A stretch of DNA of 48,697 nt, from IMG/VR virus record IMGVR_UViG_3300045988_103716. One strand, given 5' to 3'. Of the stretch, positions 29,257 to 37,380 are shown in pieces (the stretch's first letter is position 1; each line of letters starts with the position of its first letter). This stretch comes from a virus. The notes below the pieces were generated by a model. It was not told the DNA's origin and searched no databases. It was given only the letters and a program-made list of their open reading frames with translations. Position numbers and translations under genes: made by a program.

Positions 29257-29271
29257 CTCACATTTCGTGAG
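29257..29271. promoter_or_regulatory. Operator-like palindrome O1 CTCACATTTCGTGAG
   Basis: Same motif as the switch-region sites. Lies between the Cro-like gene and the antirepressor gene. Confidence 0.5.
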
Positions 29272-29479
29272 TGTCGACTCCAAAAAAAAGATAGTCCACA
29301 GTGACACCAAACAAATTCGCAATAGCTAGTTTAATTTGGTCTCTAGGAATTCGCTCACCGTTTTCATACATAGATACAGTTGAACAAGCCACATTTATGG
29401 CTTCTGCGAATTCTTGCTGGGACATCTTTTTTTCTTGTCTTAAATTTTTAATTCTTTCACCGACTAATTTAGCGTCCAT
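29258..29479 (-). CDS. Cro-like XRE-family HTH regulator (73 aa)
   Basis: ATG at 29477-29479 follows AAAGGAGA. LRQEKKMSQQEFAEAINVACSTVSMYENG. Divergent from the CI-like gene. Confidence 0.7.
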   Translation of the reverse strand: MDAKLVGERIKNLRQEKKMSQQEFAEAINVACSTVSMYENGERIPRDQIKLAIANLFGVTVDYLFFGVDTHEM

Positions 29480-29494
29480 GGCGGTCTCCTTTCT

Positions 29495-29590
29495 CTCACG
29501 TTTCGTGAGTACACACATACTATAATTCTGTAACAAATATTTGTCAACACATTTCGTGAATTTTTGATTTACAGATTCACATTACGTGAT
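29495..29590. promoter_or_regulatory. Genetic-switch operators O2 (29495-29509 CTCACGTTTCGTGAG), O3 (29546-29560 AACACATTTCGTGAA), O4 (29576-29590 TTCACATTACGTGAT)
   Basis: Three related CAC-N5-GTG palindromes lie between divergent HTH genes and overlap the predicted promoters. Confidence 0.6.
29519..29547 (-). promoter_or_regulatory. Early lytic promoter (TTGACA-17-TATAGT)
   Basis: On the minus strand, TTGACA (29542-29547), a 17-nt spacer, then TATAGT (29519-29524). Confidence 0.65.
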
Positions 29591-29595
29591 ACAAT
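29587..29595 (+). promoter_or_regulatory. Extended -10 promoter TGaTACAAT for the CI-like gene
   Basis: TGATACAAT lies 27 nt upstream of the ATG at 29622 and is overlapped by O4. Confidence 0.5.
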
Positions 29596-29621
29596 ATTGT
29601 CGAAAGGATATAGGTGACTAC

Positions 29622-29975
29622 ATGAAAGAAATGAAAGATGTTCTCAAGGATCTTAGAGAAGAAAAGCATCTGTCACAAACTCAATTAGCGGATATGCTCA
29701 AACTTAGTGCTAGCGCTATAGGCATGTATGAAAGTGGTAAAAGAATACCACGTCCTGAAATTCTTGAAACTTTTGCAGATTTCTATAATGTTGACATGGA
29801 TTATTTATACGGTCGAACGCTTATTCGAAATCAAATGAGAGATTTTAAGGGCCTCACACGCAAGCAAGAAGAAGCAATCACCGTATTATATAGATCAATT
29901 CCAAACATGACAGATGAAGAAATAGATAAAATGCTGAACATGTTCAATTTGATGTTCGACAACAAGTTGAAATAA
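29622..29975 (+). CDS. CI-like XRE-family repressor (117 aa)
   Basis: LREEKHLSQTQLADMLKLSASAIGMYESG HTH plus a C-terminal extension. Same strand as the integrase. Confidence 0.7.
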   Translation: MKEMKDVLKDLREEKHLSQTQLADMLKLSASAIGMYESGKRIPRPEILETFADFYNVDMDYLYGRTLIRNQMRDFKGLTRKQEEAITVLYRSIPNMTDEEIDKMLNMFNLMFDNKLK

Positions 29976-29988
29976 ATATATAAGACAT

Positions 29989-30121
29989 GACCTGGTGTCG
30001 CGTTTCACGACGGTAAAAGGGGGTACCGTTTTGGTACCCCCTTGGTAAAAAGACTATAAATAAAGCAAGACCTTGTGTCGTGTTTCACGACGTCAGATGG
30101 GTCCCCGTTTCAGGGATCCAT
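29989..30121 (+). repeat. Two tandem modules of a 24-nt box (GACCTnGTGTCGyGTTTCACGACG) followed by a GC-rich hairpin with a GTTT loop
   Basis: Boxes at 29989-30012 and 30069-30092 (22/24 identical; core palindrome GTCGTGTTTCACGAC). Hairpins at 30017-30043 (11 bp, perfect) and 30097-30121 (9 bp, one G-U pair). A third GTTTCACGAC sits at 30162-30171. Confidence 0.75.
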
Positions 30122-30347
30122 AGGTAATAAGAAGATAAACTCAATAACGAAACGTTACTTAGTTTCACGACCCCTTGATAAAAAAAAAGAACACTGGCTA
30201 GGCGTTCTTCACAATAGAAGGTGTATTCCTTTTCCTCTCGAGTACCAAAACGGTAGTCGAGATGTTAACCAATCTGTTAACACAGTGTTCTCTTTGGATG
30301 GGGGGGTCCAAAATGGTACCCCATATATAAATAATAAATTAAAACAA

Positions 30348-30452
30348 TTGATACCTCAACAATAAAATCTTATAATAGGAAAAGAAATGGTTGCTTTCGA
30401 GGCGACTAGTAGACCTCCTTTCCTGTTCTAGGATTGGAGGTTTTTACTTTAT
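30348..30452 (+). promoter_or_regulatory. Promoter-leader module A, copy 1 (TTGATA-17-TATAAT, leader, terminator-like hairpin ACCTCC/GGAGGT + T5); start codon position reads ATA
   Basis: Paralogous to 31020-31128, sharing AGAAATGGT, GACTAGTAGACCTCCTTTC and GGAGGTTTTTACTTTAT. No ORF follows. Confidence 0.6.
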
Positions 30453-30454
30453 AA

Positions 30455-30483
30455 TTGACAATAAAGAAGTGCTTAAGTAGAAT
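30455..30483 (+). promoter_or_regulatory. Near-consensus sigma-A promoter TTGACA-17-TAGAAT
   Basis: TTGACA at 30455-30460, a 17-nt spacer, TAGAAT at 30478-30483. Confidence 0.65.
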
Positions 30484-30489
30484 GAGACC

Positions 30490-30559
30490 TGGCTAGCGGT
30501 AGAGAATTCTAAGTGAACCTACCTGCGCAGGAAGGTCTCTCATTCGTGAGAGGCTTTTT
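30490..30559 (+). ncRNA. Candidate ~70-nt structured RNA / riboswitch-like attenuator ending in a UUCG-loop intrinsic terminator
   Basis: GAGACC (30484-30489) can pair with GGTCTC (30534-30539), which overlaps the 5' arm of the terminator stem 30535-30542/30547-30554 (UUCG loop, then T5). Confidence 0.45.
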
Positions 30560-30606
30560 CTGTTTAAGCATAAAAAAAGATCCTCACTGTGCCAATAGTG
30601 AAGGAT
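30555..30606. repeat. 3'-end module B, copy 1 (TTTTTCTGTTTAA...A7...hairpin ATCCTCACT/AGTGAAGGAT)
   Basis: Paralogous to 32098-32148, which contains the last four codons and the stop of the Abi gene. Confidence 0.65.
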
Positions 30607-30627
30607 TACTAGTGAAAGGATGATACT

Positions 30628-31023
30628 ATGAATAAAGAAAACGGAACAAGCTGTTTAGGAAAAGTAATTAGAATACTTAGTGAAAAGGCTATAATCATCG
30701 ACGTAGGGTCCGATTATCTCACCGAAGGGGACAAGGTTCAAATCTATACAGCTAGTGATGAAATACTAGATTTGGATGGGAATCAACTAGGTGTCTTTGA
30801 AAACATAAAGGACACTTTAGACGTTGTCCAAACGTCCGAAAACTACTCAATTTGCAAAAAGCTTGCTGAAAAGGCTACGAGTACGTCTATATTGCTTCAG
30901 GGACTATATAGCCAAAAAACAGTCGTTGCTGAGAATATAAATGTAGACGAGTCCCAAATAGATGCCCTAGATATAACAGATGATAAGACAATACGTTTAG
31001 GGGATTTAGTTAAAAAATATTGA
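30628..31023 (+). CDS. Hypothetical 131-aa protein (moron, upstream partner of Abi gene)
   Basis: RBS GAAAGGA lies 7 nt before the ATG. No motif recognised. Confidence 0.55.
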   Translation: MNKENGTSCLGKVIRILSEKAIIIDVGSDYLTEGDKVQIYTASDEILDLDGNQLGVFENIKDTLDVVQTSENYSICKKLAEKATSTSILLQGLYSQKTVVAENINVDESQIDALDITDDKTIRLGDLVKKY

Positions 31024-31128
31024 TACGGCTACTTAAAATGAGTATAATAGATGGGAACAGAAATGGTCACCTTTGACGGAGACTAGTAGACCTCCTTTCT
31101 ATTATTGGAAAGGAGGTTTTTACTTTAT
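31020..31128 (+). promoter_or_regulatory. Promoter-leader module A, copy 2: TTGATA-17-TATAAT promoter plus leader hairpin that sequesters the Abi SD
   Basis: TTGATA at 31020-31025 and TATAAT at 31043-31048. Perfect 10-bp stem ACCTCCTTTC (31090-31099) / GAAAGGAGGT (31108-31117), then T5, then ATG at 31127. Confidence 0.6.
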
Positions 31129-32110
31129 GCCACAGTACGATAAGCCCTTTAAGGATTACAACGAACTAATAGATTTGCTTGAAAAACGCAATGTTGAGAT
31201 ACTGGATAAGACTTTTGCTATAAATTGTCTACAACAGTTCTCCTACTACTCCCTCATCAATGGATACAAAGATTTATTCCCATCCGATGATACCGGTAAA
31301 TTTCTTATGCCTATTAGTTTCTATGATTTTTATATGCTTGCTACTTTTGATAGAGAACTAAATAATCTTTTCTTTAAATACATAATAATGATAGAGAGAA
31401 AATTAAAATCAGTTATTTCATACCGTATTTCTAGCCAATATGGTGTAGAAACGGACCTCAAAGATTTAACCTTCAACAATTCTGCGGATTATCTGTACGA
31501 AGGCTATTATCAAACAAGAAAAGAAACAAGAAATACACTTGAGGGCATCAAAAGAGATATAAGTAAAAGCAAGAATGAAAGTGTTAACCACTATTTAAAG
31601 AATCATAACCACCTTCCATGCTGGATACTTGTTAATGGCCTTTACTTTGGAAGAATTATTCAACTTTATAACATTCTATTAAAGAGAGATAAGGACTATG
31701 TTTGTGAAAAAATGCTTAGTAGTAATCTTTTAACGATGGATCAGAAAAAAGAATTTATTAAAAGCAGCTTAAATATCATACGAAAATATCGCAACAATAT
31801 AGCACATGGTAATAGAACTTTTACTAACAGAATTAAAGATGAACTGCCTAAAAAACAAGTTCTAATTCTTTCAAAAGGCGCCATAACAGATTCAGATTAT
31901 AAAAAAGGTTTTTGTAAAAATGATATTTTTGCAGTAATACTAATAATCTGCTCCTATGTAGACCCTATTCTTGCAAAATATTTCTTATCTGAAATAGAAA
32001 GGACCTTTAGACTTCTAGATGAGGCTGTATTCTCCACAGGCCAGGATATCTTTGACCTGTTATCTCTACCTAGGGATTTTTTAACGCGTTTAAGCAATTT
32101 TTCTGTTTAA
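31127..32110 (+). CDS. Abi_2 (AbiD/AbiF-like) abortive-infection protein with HEPN Rx4H motif
   Basis: N-terminus KPFKDYNELIDLLEKRNVEILDKTFAINCLQQFSYYSLINGY is typical of Abi-like proteins. IRKYRNNIAHGNR supplies R-x4-H. The ATG at 31127 is preferred over the track start at 31073. Confidence 0.75.
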   Translation: MPQYDKPFKDYNELIDLLEKRNVEILDKTFAINCLQQFSYYSLINGYKDLFPSDDTGKFLMPISFYDFYMLATFDRELNNLFFKYIIMIERKLKSVISYRISSQYGVETDLKDLTFNNSADYLYEGYYQTRKETRNTLEGIKRDISKSKNESVNHYLKNHNHLPCWILVNGLYFGRIIQLYNILLKRDKDYVCEKMLSSNLLTMDQKKEFIKSSLNIIRKYRNNIAHGNRTFTNRIKDELPKKQVLILSKGAITDSDYKKGFCKNDIFAVILIICSYVDPILAKYFLSEIERTFRLLDEAVFSTGQDIFDLLSLPRDFLTRLSNFSV

Positions 32111-32148
32111 ACAAAAAAAGATCCTTCACCGCGCCAACAGTGAAGGAT
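32098..32148. repeat. 3'-end module B, copy 2 (includes hairpin ATCCTTCAC/GTGAAGGAT)
   Basis: See copy 1. Read on the minus strand, the hairpin is followed by T7 (terminator-like for antisense transcription). Confidence 0.65.
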
Positions 32149-32267
32149 AGATCGATACAGTCTGCGCCAACAGAACTGCATCCGCATTGTAAAATTATGA
32201 CCTGCTAAAATCACCTTTTACAGTGCTCATTTTAACATATTTTAGAAAGGATGGAAACAGATTTATT

Positions 32268-33758
32268 ATGAGCGAATATATCATGTATCTTAGAAAAAGC
32301 AGACAGGATAATCCAGAAGAAACAGTGGAGGAGGTTCTTTTCCGGCATGAGATCCAGCTGCAGGAGTATGCCATGAAAAACTTCCATTACAGGATCAAGG
32401 AGGAAGACATCTATCGTGAGGTCGTCTCCGGCGAGACCATCGAAGACAGACCGGAAATGAAGAAGGTTCTGAAACTGATCGAGTCCAGCACAGTCAAAGG
32501 AGTTCTTGTGATCGAGCCACAGCGTCTTAGCCGTGGTGACATGCTCGACTGCGGTACGATTGTACATGTCTTCCGATACACCAACACTTTAGTTGTGACA
32601 CCACCCAAGACTTATGATCTGACTGAGAAGTATGACCGCAAGTTCTTTGAGATGGAGCTTTCACGTGGATCTGACTATCTGGAATATACCAAGGAGATCC
32701 TGAACCGTGGAAGAGTCTTGTCACGCAAGCAGGGAAACTATATCGGTTCTGTAGCGCCTTATGGCTACACCAAGATCAAGAACGGCAAGGAGCATTCTCT
32801 TGTGATCAACGAGGAGGAAGCTCAGTATGTGCGTATGGCCTATGATCTGTTCATCCAGGGCCATGGTTCTCATTATATTGCAGAACAGCTTGAGGCTATG
32901 GGTGCCAAGCCAAGAAAGGCAAAACACTTTACTCCGGCCAATATCCGTAAGATGTTACGCAATCCCGTGTATATCGGTCAGATCGTACTGAACCGAAGTC
33001 AGTCTGTGAAAGTGTATGAAGACGGATGTCTGAAGACTAAGCGTGTGTACAACCCTGATTATGAGACAGTACCAGGAAAACATGAGCCTATCATAAGCAA
33101 TGAAATCTTCGAACTGGCCAACAGTGAAGCCTGCAGAAAAGCTAGAGTTCCTTCTTCAAAGGAGATTCGTTTCATCTTTGCCGGACTCGCAAAATGTTCA
33201 GTCTGTGGTGGCTCGCTTGGTCTTAAGATCCATACTGGAAGAGAACATCCGTACCGTGTTGGGTGTCTGAAGAAGAAATACTGCACGAACACTTCAATTC
33301 TTTATGAAGACTTCATAGACCTTGTTGTAAATGCACTTAAAGAGCAGATACAAGACTTTGAAGTACAGATCGAGACAAATGTATACAAAGAGGCCTTTGA
33401 AACACAGAGCCTTTTAGAATCACTCACAAAACGTCTTGAAAAGACAGATGAGAAGATGGGGCAGTTGTGTCAGTATCTGGAAGAAGGAATGTATACTCCA
33501 GATATGTTCGTCAAACGCCGTGATACGCTCATCCAGGAGAAGGATGAACTTCAAAAAGCAGTCAAGGAAGCCAACAAGAAGATGTCTGGGATGAAGGATA
33601 TAAAAGAAAAGACTTCATCATTACATGAAGCCTTGAATTTGTTGCGTGATGACTCGATATCGCCACGCCTTAAAAACACGTTTCTCAAAAAGATTATCAA
33701 AGTGATATATTTTAGTAGAATCAATGATGAAATAGTCTTGAAAGTCGTCCTTAGATAG
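32268..33758 (+). CDS. int: Large serine recombinase (phage integrase)
   Basis: N-terminal resolvase-type domain (YLRKSRQD...VLVIEPQRLSRGD), recombinase domain, zinc-ribbon CSVCGGSLGLK...C and a C-terminal coiled coil. Confidence 0.85.
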   Translation: MSEYIMYLRKSRQDNPEETVEEVLFRHEIQLQEYAMKNFHYRIKEEDIYREVVSGETIEDRPEMKKVLKLIESSTVKGVLVIEPQRLSRGDMLDCGTIVHVFRYTNTLVVTPPKTYDLTEKYDRKFFEMELSRGSDYLEYTKEILNRGRVLSRKQGNYIGSVAPYGYTKIKNGKEHSLVINEEEAQYVRMAYDLFIQGHGSHYIAEQLEAMGAKPRKAKHFTPANIRKMLRNPVYIGQIVLNRSQSVKVYEDGCLKTKRVYNPDYETVPGKHEPIISNEIFELANSEACRKARVPSSKEIRFIFAGLAKCSVCGGSLGLKIHTGREHPYRVGCLKKKYCTNTSILYEDFIDLVVNALKEQIQDFEVQIETNVYKEAFETQSLLESLTKRLEKTDEKMGQLCQYLEEGMYTPDMFVKRRDTLIQEKDELQKAVKEANKKMSGMKDIKEKTSSLHEALNLLRDDSISPRLKNTFLKKIIKVIYFSRINDEIVLKVVLR

Positions 33759-35933: not shown

Positions 35934-36302
35934 TCATTGATATACCAGCTCACTCATTTCCAGAACACACTGTGTCAGCATGTCATTCTGGTCCTTTAGA
36001 TCCTGGATCTGTTCTTCCAGTGTCTTTGGTTTTGGATCTTCAGTAACTTTCGGCACATAGTCTAAATATTTTTCTGGATGAGCCTTTAGATTTTCTAGAT
36101 CCAGGTTTTCTTTCTTTTCACAGAACTCCGCATAATCATAGTAATAAACCGTATGCTTTACATTCTCTTCGTTGACGGACTCAGGATAGCTGATTTCTAC
36201 TTCTTCCTTTACTACTTCATTTAAATAAATGTAAACATAGATATTGTCATCAAATTCCTTGAGTTCTAAGTTCGGTTTCTGCTCGTAAAATCTTATATTC
36301 AT
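35934..36302 (-). CDS. Acidic hypothetical protein downstream of the RT
   Basis: Preferred start is the ATG at 36300-36302 (MNIRFYEQK...). Overlaps the RT 3' end by 53 nt. Not Avd-like, being acidic and not a basic helical bundle. Confidence 0.45.
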   Translation of the reverse strand: MNIRFYEQKPNLELKEFDDNIYVYIYLNEVVKEEVEISYPESVNEENVKHTVYYYDYAEFCEKKENLDLENLKAHPEKYLDYVPKVTEDPKPKTLEEQIQDLKDQNDMLTQCVLEMSELVYQ

Positions 36303-37380
36303 TTGAAACAACCTTTCTAGCTTTTCTGAACAAAGCATATAAACTGTTACCCTGCATAAATGATAAAGAATCTGAATGTTCCAGAATCCCTTTGAAGCTT
36401 AGAAGTCGTTTTGCCAACTTAAAACTCTTTGGTTTTCTCTTAAATCGAAAGCAGGCTCTTTTTATCTTTTTGAAAGTACCTCTTCTCACTGTGATATGGT
36501 CTCGATAGATACGATATCCCATCATATCGATAAAAGAGTCCTCTGTGATCTTAAAGCATCTCCAAGAGTCCTTTACGGCAAGTCCCATTTCTTTTAAGGC
36601 CTGAATAATCACCTGAGCCGCTAACATCAGATTTCTTGAATTGGATCCAAGAATAAGAATGTCATCCATGTAAAAAAGGGCATGCAACACTAGCATTACC
36701 CTTTTAATGGTTCCATCTTTTTTATGTCTTTCTCTGTATAGACGTTCCTTGATCATGTGATATAGATCAGATAGATACAGATTGCCTAGATACTGTGATA
36801 AATAGCTTCCTATGCTTAGTCCTTTCTTGAATGTATTTACCAGGGTCTCAACAAGCCATAATAAAGGCTCATTTTTAACATGTTTTCTAAGCCAGGCCAT
36901 CAGTTTTTCACGTGGTATAGACTCATAGTATTTACGGATATCAAATTTACAGGCGTACTGAACTTCATATTTTCCGTTTACTTTCTTTCTGAGCCATCTT
37001 TGAATAGCATAGGCACCGTACAATTGTCCTCGTTTAGGTATACTTGCACATTGATAGGTTCCAATTCTTTTGATCAATTCTTTCAGACCTTCTACTGCAA
37101 TGTAGTCGTACATTTGTTGCTTGATATCCTGTATTCCTATGGTTCTCATCTTCTGTGATCCTGAGTCATACTTATTCTTGTACCATATTGGTAACAGTTC
37201 TAAATTTCTATTTAGCAATTCATTTTGTAAAGCAAGACTGATATTCTCAATATTTCCATACTGTTCAAAAATACGTTTTATATCGTATCTGTCTTTACTT
37301 TTGCCTTTAAGGCATTTACATACTGATTTTTGAATTAAATCAATATTTGTAATATCAACGTCCTTACACAATCGTTTCAT
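36250..37380 (-). CDS. DGR-type reverse transcriptase
   Basis: Motifs KFDIRKYYESI (A), GLSIGSYLSQYLGNLYLSDL (DGR-specific IGxxxSQ) and LFYMDDILILG (YMDD). GGAGGTG RBS. Confidence 0.9.
   Translation of the reverse strand: MKRLCKDVDITNIDLIQKSVCKCLKGKSKDRYDIKRIFEQYGNIENISLALQNELLNRNLELLPIWYKNKYDSGSQKMRTIGIQDIKQQMYDYIAVEGLKELIKRIGTYQCASIPKRGQLYGAYAIQRWLRKKVNGKYEVQYACKFDIRKYYESIPREKLMAWLRKHVKNEPLLWLVETLVNTFKKGLSIGSYLSQYLGNLYLSDLYHMIKERLYRERHKKDGTIKRVMLVLHALFYMDDILILGSNSRNLMLAAQVIIQALKEMGLAVKDSWRCFKITEDSFIDMMGYRIYRDHITVRRGTFKKIKRACFRFKRKPKSFKLAKRLLSFKGILEHSDSLSFMQGNSLYALFRKARKVVSNEYKILRAETELRTQGI

Follow-up and report, generated by a model that had tools for sequence, protein, structure and literature searches.

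Stacked AbiD/F cassettes with a conserved leader RNA gene upstream of a phage integrase gene

What is the role of two duplicated sequence modules that in one copy bracket an abortive-infection (Abi) gene and in the other only a promoter and a structured RNA? The question is raised by positions 30348-32148 of a temperate gut phage, virus record IMGVR_UViG_3300045988_103716, whose 48,697 nucleotides (nt) are here called the window and of which the stretch 29400-33400 was read for this check. The locus is flanked by a divergent pair of helix-turn-helix (HTH) repressor genes on one side and by the gene for a large serine recombinase (int) on the other. AbiD/F (Abi2) genes are among the commonest anti-phage gene families, and the group is regarded as the ancestor of Cas13. 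An earlier note on this DNA took the repeats, modules A and B, for boundaries of a moron or defence locus. Module A is instead a conserved leader-RNA gene with a promoter, a first hairpin (P1) and a terminator that buries the Shine-Dalgarno (SD) sequence, and not a neutral boundary. That it is itself an Abi-associated leader RNA, supported by covariation, had been overlooked. The locus is probably made up of stacked AbiD/F cassettes upstream of int, in which the leader RNA of the second module A (A2) attenuates abi and inhibits Abi, with the 131-residue product of an open reading frame (ORF131) as third component.

The two copies of module A, A1 (30348-30452) and A2 (31020-31128), lie on the plus strand and share one layout: a TTGATA-17-TATAAT promoter, AGAAATGG, a hairpin, GACTAGTAGACCTCC and a second hairpin, the end reading GGAGGTTTTTACTTTATA in A1 and ...ACTTTATG in A2. 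In A1 the promoter (30348..30376) precedes a leader RNA (30383..30447) that folds into P1 (30389-30407) and an SD-type terminator hairpin (30413-30441) with U-run; no Abi gene follows this orphan copy. In A2 the promoter (31020..31048) precedes a leader RNA (31055..31126) which, by terminator scan and folding, consists of P1 (31065-31084), CUAG and a terminator hairpin of 14 bp (31088-31119), with the Shine-Dalgarno sequence of Abi, GAAAGGAGG, as its 3' arm. The strong hairpin ends GGAGGTTTTTACTTTAT in both copies, and the next base completes ATG in A2, at 31127 and the start of Abi, and ATA in A1. A promoter, a short structured RNA and an intrinsic terminator are thus found directly upstream of abi, transcription being predicted. 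Both A promoters match the sigma-70 consensus in 11 of 12 positions; sites with at least 11/12 number four in 48.7 kb, three of them the promoters of A1, of the structured RNA between A1 and B1 (a small RNA, sRNA1) and of A2, and the fourth at 29547 (-). Compared with shuffled sequences, the leaders and the hairpins of B are far more stable in folding (z -4.8 to -5.9), with -26.5 kcal/mol and z = -4.9 for the A1 leader and z = -4.8 for that of A2. With the whole window as search space, A1 and A2 are similar at E = 1e-6 (49 nt, 88% identity) and B1 and B2 at E = 3e-5 (87% identity); a find_repeats-type search of the window recovers both pairs, and the A copies align with related phages at E = 1e-14 to 1e-20. 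Every feature that the earlier note had placed in modules A and B is present at the positions given there, and the similarity of the copies is beyond chance.

The gene that starts in A2 (31127..32110, +) encodes a 327-aa HEPN protein of the AbiD/F group, as matched by Pfam Abi_2 (PF07751; 1.9e-35, 123 bits, cut-off 25.6), PADLOC AbiD (4e-42) and phrog_2158 (5e-65). The HEPN R-phi-xxx-H motif is RNNIAH at residues 222-227, which aligns with the RN.IAHG block of the homologues. The sole relative in the PDB is 8VZ6, the complex of PbAbiF with its non-coding RNA (ncRNA), at E = 4e-8. A2 provides the SD and the ATG of this gene, and the first 13 nt of B2 hold its last codons and stop (N F S V *), so that the earlier reading of both boundaries is confirmed in the sequence. 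The C-terminus is full length relative to the homologues, and as NFSV* aligns with their NLNSFQ*, TTTTTCTGTTTAA is the native 3' end of Abi. The exact protein occurs on at least 23 contigs. The toxin type is HEPN and not ToxN/AbiQ, and no tandem array of antitoxin RNA repeats of the ToxIN/AbiQ kind was detected in 29900-32300 with Tandem Repeats Finder.

The leader recurs in front of related Abi_2 genes. The typical spacer between an ORF131 homologue and Abi_2 is ~100-110 nt long and contains, in most loci read, a promoter with its -35 box over the ORF131 stop, then GARAUGG, a P1 hairpin of 6-7 bp, CUAG, a terminator with GGAGG in its 3' arm, a U-run and a start codon ~10 nt on. Such a leader was found between the two genes in L015, L019, L031, L034, L038, L039, Javan374, Javan321, L055 and L058 (L-numbers label related loci or contigs, L001-L006 being six IMG/VR contigs). 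The promoter overlaps the ORF131 stop codon, as in A2, also in L015, L019, L038 and L039, and in L034 it is the last sense codon of the homologue that the -35 box overlaps, the stop falling within the spacer of the promoter. Among ten leaders, 95% of the cells in P1 and the terminator are paired, compared with 36-53% in slid controls, and six pairs change on both sides; for P1 alone, across 11 lineages, the figures are 94.8% versus 30-42%, with four of seven pairs compensatory. A covariance model, R1, built from 10 leaders found the held-out leaders of L055, L058/L059 and Javan321 directly upstream of Abi_2 starts (~43 bits, E ~1e-7). It also matched the AAATGG-P1-CTAGG stretch upstream of Abi_2 in Listeria phage HB17054, which has no ORF131; the more divergent leader of phage JNU_P5 (15.6 bits, E = 0.72) was not convincing. 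The only full-length matches in the window are A1 (92 bits) and A2 (81 bits), both of them training sequences, the A1 score being high by construction; the other window matches, weaker and partial, are to the terminator hairpin of A2 read on the opposite strand. Judged from sequence, module A precedes this Abi_2 subfamily in Streptococcus and Listeria phages as well as in uncultured phages of the gut.

The architecture is familiar from characterised AbiD/F systems. In C. difficile, AbiF is toxic, and the ncRNA RCd22 upstream of it is transcribed from a SigA promoter, contains two abiF motifs (RF03085) and ends at a Rho-independent terminator; besides attenuating abiF, it neutralises the AbiF protein in cis and in trans (PMC12373285). 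PbAbiF binds the ncRNA AbiFr in the 8VZ6 structure (PMC12737573), and abiD1 has a 50-nt terminated leader, a sequestered ribosome-binding site (RBS) and expression by read-through (PMC2661086). A 2026 review describes the AbiD/F group as a protein with an upstream RNA, the upstream DNA being more conserved than the genes (PMC13064643). RCd22-AbiF of the phi027/phiC2 prophages and PbAbiF-AbiFr, both type III-like toxin-antitoxin systems, share with the window an Abi_2 protein of the HEPN kind carried by a prophage, a promoter of sigma-A type, a short structured RNA, a Rho-independent terminator and an abi gene reached by read-through. The window differs from these systems in having one leader hairpin of another consensus (GARAUGG-P1-CUAG) without an RF03085 match, a terminator that itself sequesters the SD, a conserved upstream ORF131, and a position between repressor and int instead of in the lysis module. 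The lactococcal AbiD1 system of plasmid pIL105, likened here by its description only, shares an upstream 50-nt RNA that ends at a terminator, read-through and a sequestered RBS; its terminator and RBS hairpin are separate, two downstream genes are co-transcribed, and no upstream gene of the ORF131 type is described for it. Scanning 14 related loci over their whole length gave no RF03085 match at E <= 1 to 5; the search itself works, as the positive control in phiC2 scored 37.6 bits, and R1 gave just 11 bits on RCd22. Module A combines the architecture of an AbiD/F leader with an RNA different from the abiF motif. The type III toxin-antitoxin-like arrangement suggested in the earlier note is, by analogy, consistent with published AbiD/F systems (PMC12373285, PMC13064643). 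When the locus and A2 alone were compared with Rfam, only sub-threshold look-alikes of terminators (PyrG and PyrR leaders) came up, and these were discarded.

What is not described in these reports (PMC12373285, PMC12737573, PMC2661086, PMC13064643) is a conserved protein encoded upstream. ORF131 (30628..31023, +) lies between the two A/B pairs, as seen before, and encodes an acidic protein (isoelectric point, pI, 4.4) whose TGA stop falls within the -35 box of A2. Its sole family match is phrog_27728 (6e-16), of unknown function; Pfam, NCBIfam and PADLOC gave no match, and the profile search outlined an unannotated family of 737 cluster representatives. Abi_2 follows the ORF131-family gene at ~100-160 nt in 16 of the 17 lineages checked, a synteny that bears out the proposal of ORF131 as a partner of Abi. 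The sole exception, P0005, has an altered C-terminus and no Abi downstream. The exact Abi allele has ORF131 104 nt upstream in 8/8 places shown, while the repressor module varies, and the order A1-sRNA1-B1-ORF131-A2-Abi-B2 was present in all seven Abi-bearing contigs compared in detail. Diverged homologues (52-67% identity) in other uncultured phages, which have LexA-type repressors and serine or tyrosine integrases, have Abi_2 ~102-105 nt downstream. Among annotated records, Streptococcus phage Javan374, Staphylococcus phage phi575 and Lactobacillus phage iA2 have the order repressor, ORF131 homologue, Abi_2 and int. The homologue (hhalign 98.7% and 95.7%) is also directly upstream of Abi_2 in satellite Javan321 and phage JNU_P5, with no adjacent int or repressor seen, and two Lactobacillaceae plasmids also carry the pair. 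Three remote family members (E = 6e-23, 1e-17 and 5e-14) all have Abi_2 at 108-140 nt. No ORF131 homologue accompanies the distant Abi_2 genes (27-31% identity) of SE-1, HB17054, IME197, MissC and Javan565. The AlphaFold2 model of ORF131, of moderate confidence (predicted local distance difference test 69.5), shows a core of beta-barrel type and a confidently modelled strand at the C-terminus, with disorder at residues 82-118. A function could not be read from the structure, for which Foldseek returned merely generic beta-barrels (FlgT, the N-terminal domain of F1-ATPase).

The ORF131 homologues of L039-L041 (P0003, P0004) are recorded as 185 aa, an annotation artefact of a gene caller that read through the TGA in the -35 box. 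Directly upstream of the ORF131-less Abi_2 of Enterococcus phage IME197 (L052), a tRNA gene (1267-1340) occupies the 320-nt spacer.

From the observed anatomy, conservation, covariation, synteny and cargo variation, we infer transcription, attenuation, RNA-protein binding, toxicity and defence as follows. In the intact copy (30628-32148), comprising ORF131, module A2 and the AbiD/F HEPN Abi, the strong sigma-A-type promoter of A2 would drive a leader of ~65-70 nt, most transcripts ending at the terminator as a short RNA. Rare read-through would give an abi mRNA with its RBS still buried, and the toxic RNase would be made at a very low level. As in RCd22/AbiF, PbAbiF/AbiFr and the 50-nt leader of abiD1, to which the analogy is drawn, the short RNA would probably have a second role, that of a type III-like antitoxin which binds Abi and neutralises it; infection would lift the block. 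ORF131, as third component, would be made upstream of the attenuator and therefore in excess of Abi, which makes a protein antitoxin, a modulator or a sensor its most plausible role. A1 would be a second source of related leader RNA and, in sister phages, would provide attenuated transcription of other toxic or defence cargo by read-through.

Several points weigh against this model. The antitoxin role of the leader RNA is argued by analogy, from architecture alone, and the covariation counts come from ~11 lineages in all. R1 gives 37 bits on an unrelated Shine-Dalgarno/terminator hairpin in L027, so that the half of R1 that describes the terminator lacks specificity. RF03085 is absent from A2 at E <= 10 in a 96-nt search, so that homology of the leader RNA with the AbiF antitoxins is at most putative. 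ORF131 could be the real antitoxin and the leader RNA merely an attenuator. Spelled out, this alternative describes ORF131 and Abi as a type II-like pair with module A as only a promoter and attenuator that sets the ORF131:Abi ratio. It would agree with the strictly conserved gene order and the terminator between ORF131 and abi, with an acidic ORF131 next to a basic Abi (pI 8.8), and with L001 and L003, in which module A drives cargo unrelated to Abi, as a generic attenuated promoter would. We nevertheless regard it as rather unlikely: distant Abi_2 genes occur without ORF131, HB17054 among them keeping an A-type leader, P1 is maintained by covariation though termination does not need it, and the characterised AbiD/F members are neutralised by RNA (PMC12373285, PMC13064643).

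The reading in which the A2 leader RNA both attenuates abi and inhibits Abi also leaves sRNA1 to be placed. Between A1 and B1 there is, as the earlier note described, only a promoter and a terminated ~70-nt RNA. The sRNA1 module (30455..30567, +) has the promoter TTGACA-17-TAGAAT at 30455-30483 and a terminator hairpin at 30535-30554 (+) whose U-run is the start of TTTTTCTGTTTAA. Rfam and tRNA searches gave no match, and a tRNA/tmRNA check rejected sRNA1 as a tRNA-like or tmRNA species. As an RNA antitoxin or partner of Abi, the role suggested earlier for the RNA at 30490-30559, sRNA1 has in its favour that it is strongly promoted and terminated ~560 nt upstream of abi, that it is found in all eight contigs with this exact Abi allele (L007-L014, module identity 98-100%), and that its predicted duplex with the A leaders is marginally better than those of shuffled sequences, which equalled it in 5/300 cases, a weak prediction. 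The role is still very improbable and the proposal is not supported: sRNA1 occurs without Abi in L002, L005 and L006, after A1 or A2; the other ORF131-Abi_2 loci examined showed no copy of it in their flanks, which were inspected by eye and not with a model; it has no tandem repeats; and ORF131 and another promoter lie between it and abi.

The origin of the duplication can be read from remnants in the upstream copy. About 10 nt upstream of A1 (TTAAAACAA) resemble the last ORF131 codons seen upstream of A2, and the remnant of the Abi 3' end, TTTTTCTGTTTAA, now forms the U-tail of the terminators of sRNA1 and of a further RNA of the relatives, sRNA2. The upstream copy (30348-30606) thus keeps ~10 nt of the 3' end of ORF131 and the last 13 nt of Abi; ORF131 has been lost and the Abi ORF replaced between its start position and these 13 nt, while the promoter, leader and terminator of A1 survive intact. 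The P1 hairpin of A1 is identical to that in the leader of the L039 ORF131-Abi allele and not to that of A2. Remnants of both ORFs together with a P1 of the L039 type argue that A1...B1 is a gutted cassette of another allele, with sRNA1 in place of the Abi ORF. The intact ORF131-A2-Abi-B2 cassette directly adjoins the B1 hairpin on its right; the two frames are stacked and are not a local tandem duplication. The view of the modules as a local tandem-duplication scar is contradicted by the L039-type P1 and by the variant cargo of the relatives.

It might still be held that A1, sRNA1 and B1 are inert scars of recombination and the duplication functionless, as A1 keeps fragments of both lost ORFs and deletions in the region are still ongoing in L005, where one fuses the B1 hairpin loop to the last 30 bp of ORF131. 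This is improbable given that the A1 promoter still matches 11/12 of the consensus, that the hairpins are intact, that A1 is kept at 96-99% in seven Abi-bearing contigs and its whole region at ~87-92% in six viral contigs, across at least four repressor types, and that the cargo of L001 and L003 is preceded by this promoter alone.

Module B consists of TTTTTCTGTTTAA, an A7 run and a hairpin ATCCT(T)CAC...GTGAAGGAT. In B1 (30555-30606) the hairpin is at 30580-30606 and TTTTTCTGTTTAA is the remnant of the Abi 3' end; in B2 (32098-32148) it is at 32121-32148. The earlier description of this module stands as to its parts. As the A-run comes before the hairpin and a U-run follows only on the minus strand, the hairpin is a minus-strand terminator and not a plus-strand one. 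In B2 this terminator has 12 pairs followed by CTTTTTTTGT and folds at -17 kcal/mol (z = -5.1; B hairpins range from about -5 to -5.9), and B1, a copy of this terminator of the int-proximal RNA, is also listed as a minus-strand terminator-like site.

The B2 terminator closes a predicted minus-strand small RNA gene upstream of int (32112..32257, -), in which a promoter scan places TTTCCA-17-TGTTAAAAT at 32257-32229 (-), ahead of an RNA of ~110 nt in which two hairpins, the first of them palindromic, have the same CGCCAA loop. On the minus strand of the Abi-int spacer all lineages read have four elements: close upstream of the int SD, the extended -10 box TGnTAAAAT; then the palindromic hairpin, GUACAUAAAAAG...CUUUUUAUGUAC or, in the window, its equivalent; one more hairpin; and the hairpin of B with its U-run. 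The extended -10 box and the first hairpin are kept in L015, L019, L020, L034 and Javan374. From these conserved elements it follows that the B hairpin terminates an int-proximal antisense small RNA, and module B joins the 3' end of Abi to the Rho-independent terminator of this conserved RNA, whose start lies close upstream of the int RBS. The equivalent stretch of Javan565 matches RF02589 (Spy779816, a Streptococcus pyogenes small RNA) above threshold at 70.8 bits, that of Javan374 is below threshold for RF02589 (30 bits) and for ctRNA_pT181, and the window had no RF02589 match at E <= 10 and none at the gathering threshold. Like RF02589 and antisense RNAs of the counter-transcribed (ctRNA) type, the minus-strand RNA between abi and int has a 5' hairpin and a terminator hairpin; the window RNA differs by an extra middle hairpin. 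The loop shared by the two hairpins of the minus-strand RNA (32150-32260 in the window) differs between the int-upstream spacers of the loci; it is CGCCAA in the window and L019, TTACCAGC in L015 and CTGGCAA in L020. Such locus-specific loops suggest loop-specific recognition of some target.

Relatives were recovered with the 19-nt core of A as six IMG/VR contigs and compared by BLAST and by reading their layouts. A search of annotated phages for close DNA relatives found none, locus searches of viral contigs seeded with the ORF131 and Abi proteins gave no matches, and pattern scans of genome and metagenome contigs returned merely unrelated Shine-Dalgarno terminators or short fragments. All six contigs keep A and B with differing cargo. 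In L001, A is followed by a 28-nt linker with an SD, a 196-aa PemK/MazF-like gene, a promoter of its own with an RNA of two direct repeats (sRNA2), B and int; L006 is the same with sRNA1 inserted after A. L003 and L004 have A, the linker, a 320-aa DUF3644/EC042_2821 protein (PADLOC PDC-S19, 1e-144), a minus-strand RNA, the B hairpin and a different int. L002 has no protein cargo and reads A, sRNA1, sRNA2', sRNA3, minus-strand RNA, B and int, and L005 reads A1, sRNA2, a truncated B1 joined to the final 30 bp of ORF131, A2, sRNA1, B and int. The proposed cassette replacement at a hotspot between repressor and integrase is therefore borne out, and the variants in the relatives speak against a scar alone. 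The comparison of layouts indicates a defence hotspot at which A and B, as functional parts of the Abi cassette, serve as recombination flanks.

Some of the cargo deserves description in its own right. The PemK/MazF-like gene (L001 9781-10500; L006 reverse strand 1782-2372 and ~130 nt beyond) has downstream of it a consensus promoter of its own and a terminated RNA that contains a pair of direct repeats (ATTATGGCCTTAGCGCCG). The RNA is retained in L005 (7833-7960) and, as a diverged version with a single repeat, in L002 (reverse complement, 265-400), in both cases without the toxin gene. The gene and its downstream RNA may form a type III-like pair with orphan copies of the RNA. In phages with the second integrase type, a minus-strand small RNA candidate lies between the cargo and the B hairpin (L002, reverse complement, 530-650; L003 3790-3885), with a TTGACT-N16/17-TATAAT promoter and a long closing stem AGATCAAC...GTTGATCT with U-run.

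Orphan leaders, A1 itself and A in the sisters that lack Abi, could alternatively serve counter-defence as antitoxin RNAs acting in trans against the Abi_2 of a resident prophage. Pseudo-ToxI reportedly does such neutralising for phage phiTE. Orphan A copies with intact promoters are present in six Abi-less relatives, orphan sRNA2 copies without a PemK-like neighbour in L002 and L005, and RCd22 works in trans (PMC12373285). The explanation remains quite improbable, as module A has an obvious cis role as cargo promoter in L001 and L003 and as A1 and A2 differ in their P1 sequence.

The stacked cassettes also qualify as a moron: they have their own promoter and terminator, an atypical composition (34% G+C at the locus versus 40.5%) and a variable presence at a fixed site in relatives. 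Phage morons and the exchange of modules at boundary sequences are an established concept of phage genomics. The window shares with morons the autonomous promoter-gene-terminator units between lysogeny genes, exchanged at short flanks; it differs in that the flanks are functional parts of an ancestral Abi cassette and not neutral linkers, and in that several cargo units are small RNA genes alone.

In prophage copies, host genes stand directly 3' of int, which places attP downstream of int and makes the window the unintegrated phage form. An attP upstream of int, at the imperfect inverted repeat 32185-32225, was ruled out by the prophage junctions, which put host genes right after the int stop codon. 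On the other side of the locus, three CACGTTTCGTGA operators lie between the divergent HTH repressor genes. The operator-like palindromic 12-mer CACRTTWCGTGA occurs three times at 29497-29589, between the HTH genes 29258-29479 (-) and 29622-29975 (+), its copies adjoining the 11/12 promoter at 29547 (-), an early promoter. From the repressor stop to A1 (29976-30347) there is an array of ~80-nt repeats, each unit with GACCTKGTGTCGYGTTTCACGAC and a GC-rich hairpin of variable stem, its loop being GTTT(T/C)R or, in relatives, the complement TGAAAC, with no Rfam match. A minus-strand terminator at 30210-30186 within the array suggests a further minus-strand RNA, and the content of the array differs between otherwise near-identical phages. 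Elsewhere in the window, a 376-aa reverse transcriptase (36250-37380, -; Pfam RVT_1, called on the identical contig L045) lies among tail and lysis genes and probably belongs to a diversity-generating retroelement.

A wider interpretation, tentative and on balance doubtful, is that ORF131, the A-type leader and Abi_2 form an undescribed tripartite defence system, and that the orphan leaders and antitoxin-like RNAs (A1, sRNA2 and perhaps sRNA1) are a portable toolkit. If true, the toolkit would neutralise the toxins of rivals or tame new toxic cargo, and ORF131 would be an obligatory sensor or a second antitoxin. For the AbiD/F group, the stacked cassettes of the window mean that this large subfamily carries a second class of leader RNA, which is not in Rfam, and, as the ORF131 family is not listed in PADLOC, NCBIfam or Pfam, that it has a conserved but unannotated partner. 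In related gut phages, the regulatory RNA gene and the downstream terminator serve as the flanks at which defence cargo is swapped, leaving behind orphan RNA genes that are still promoter-proficient.

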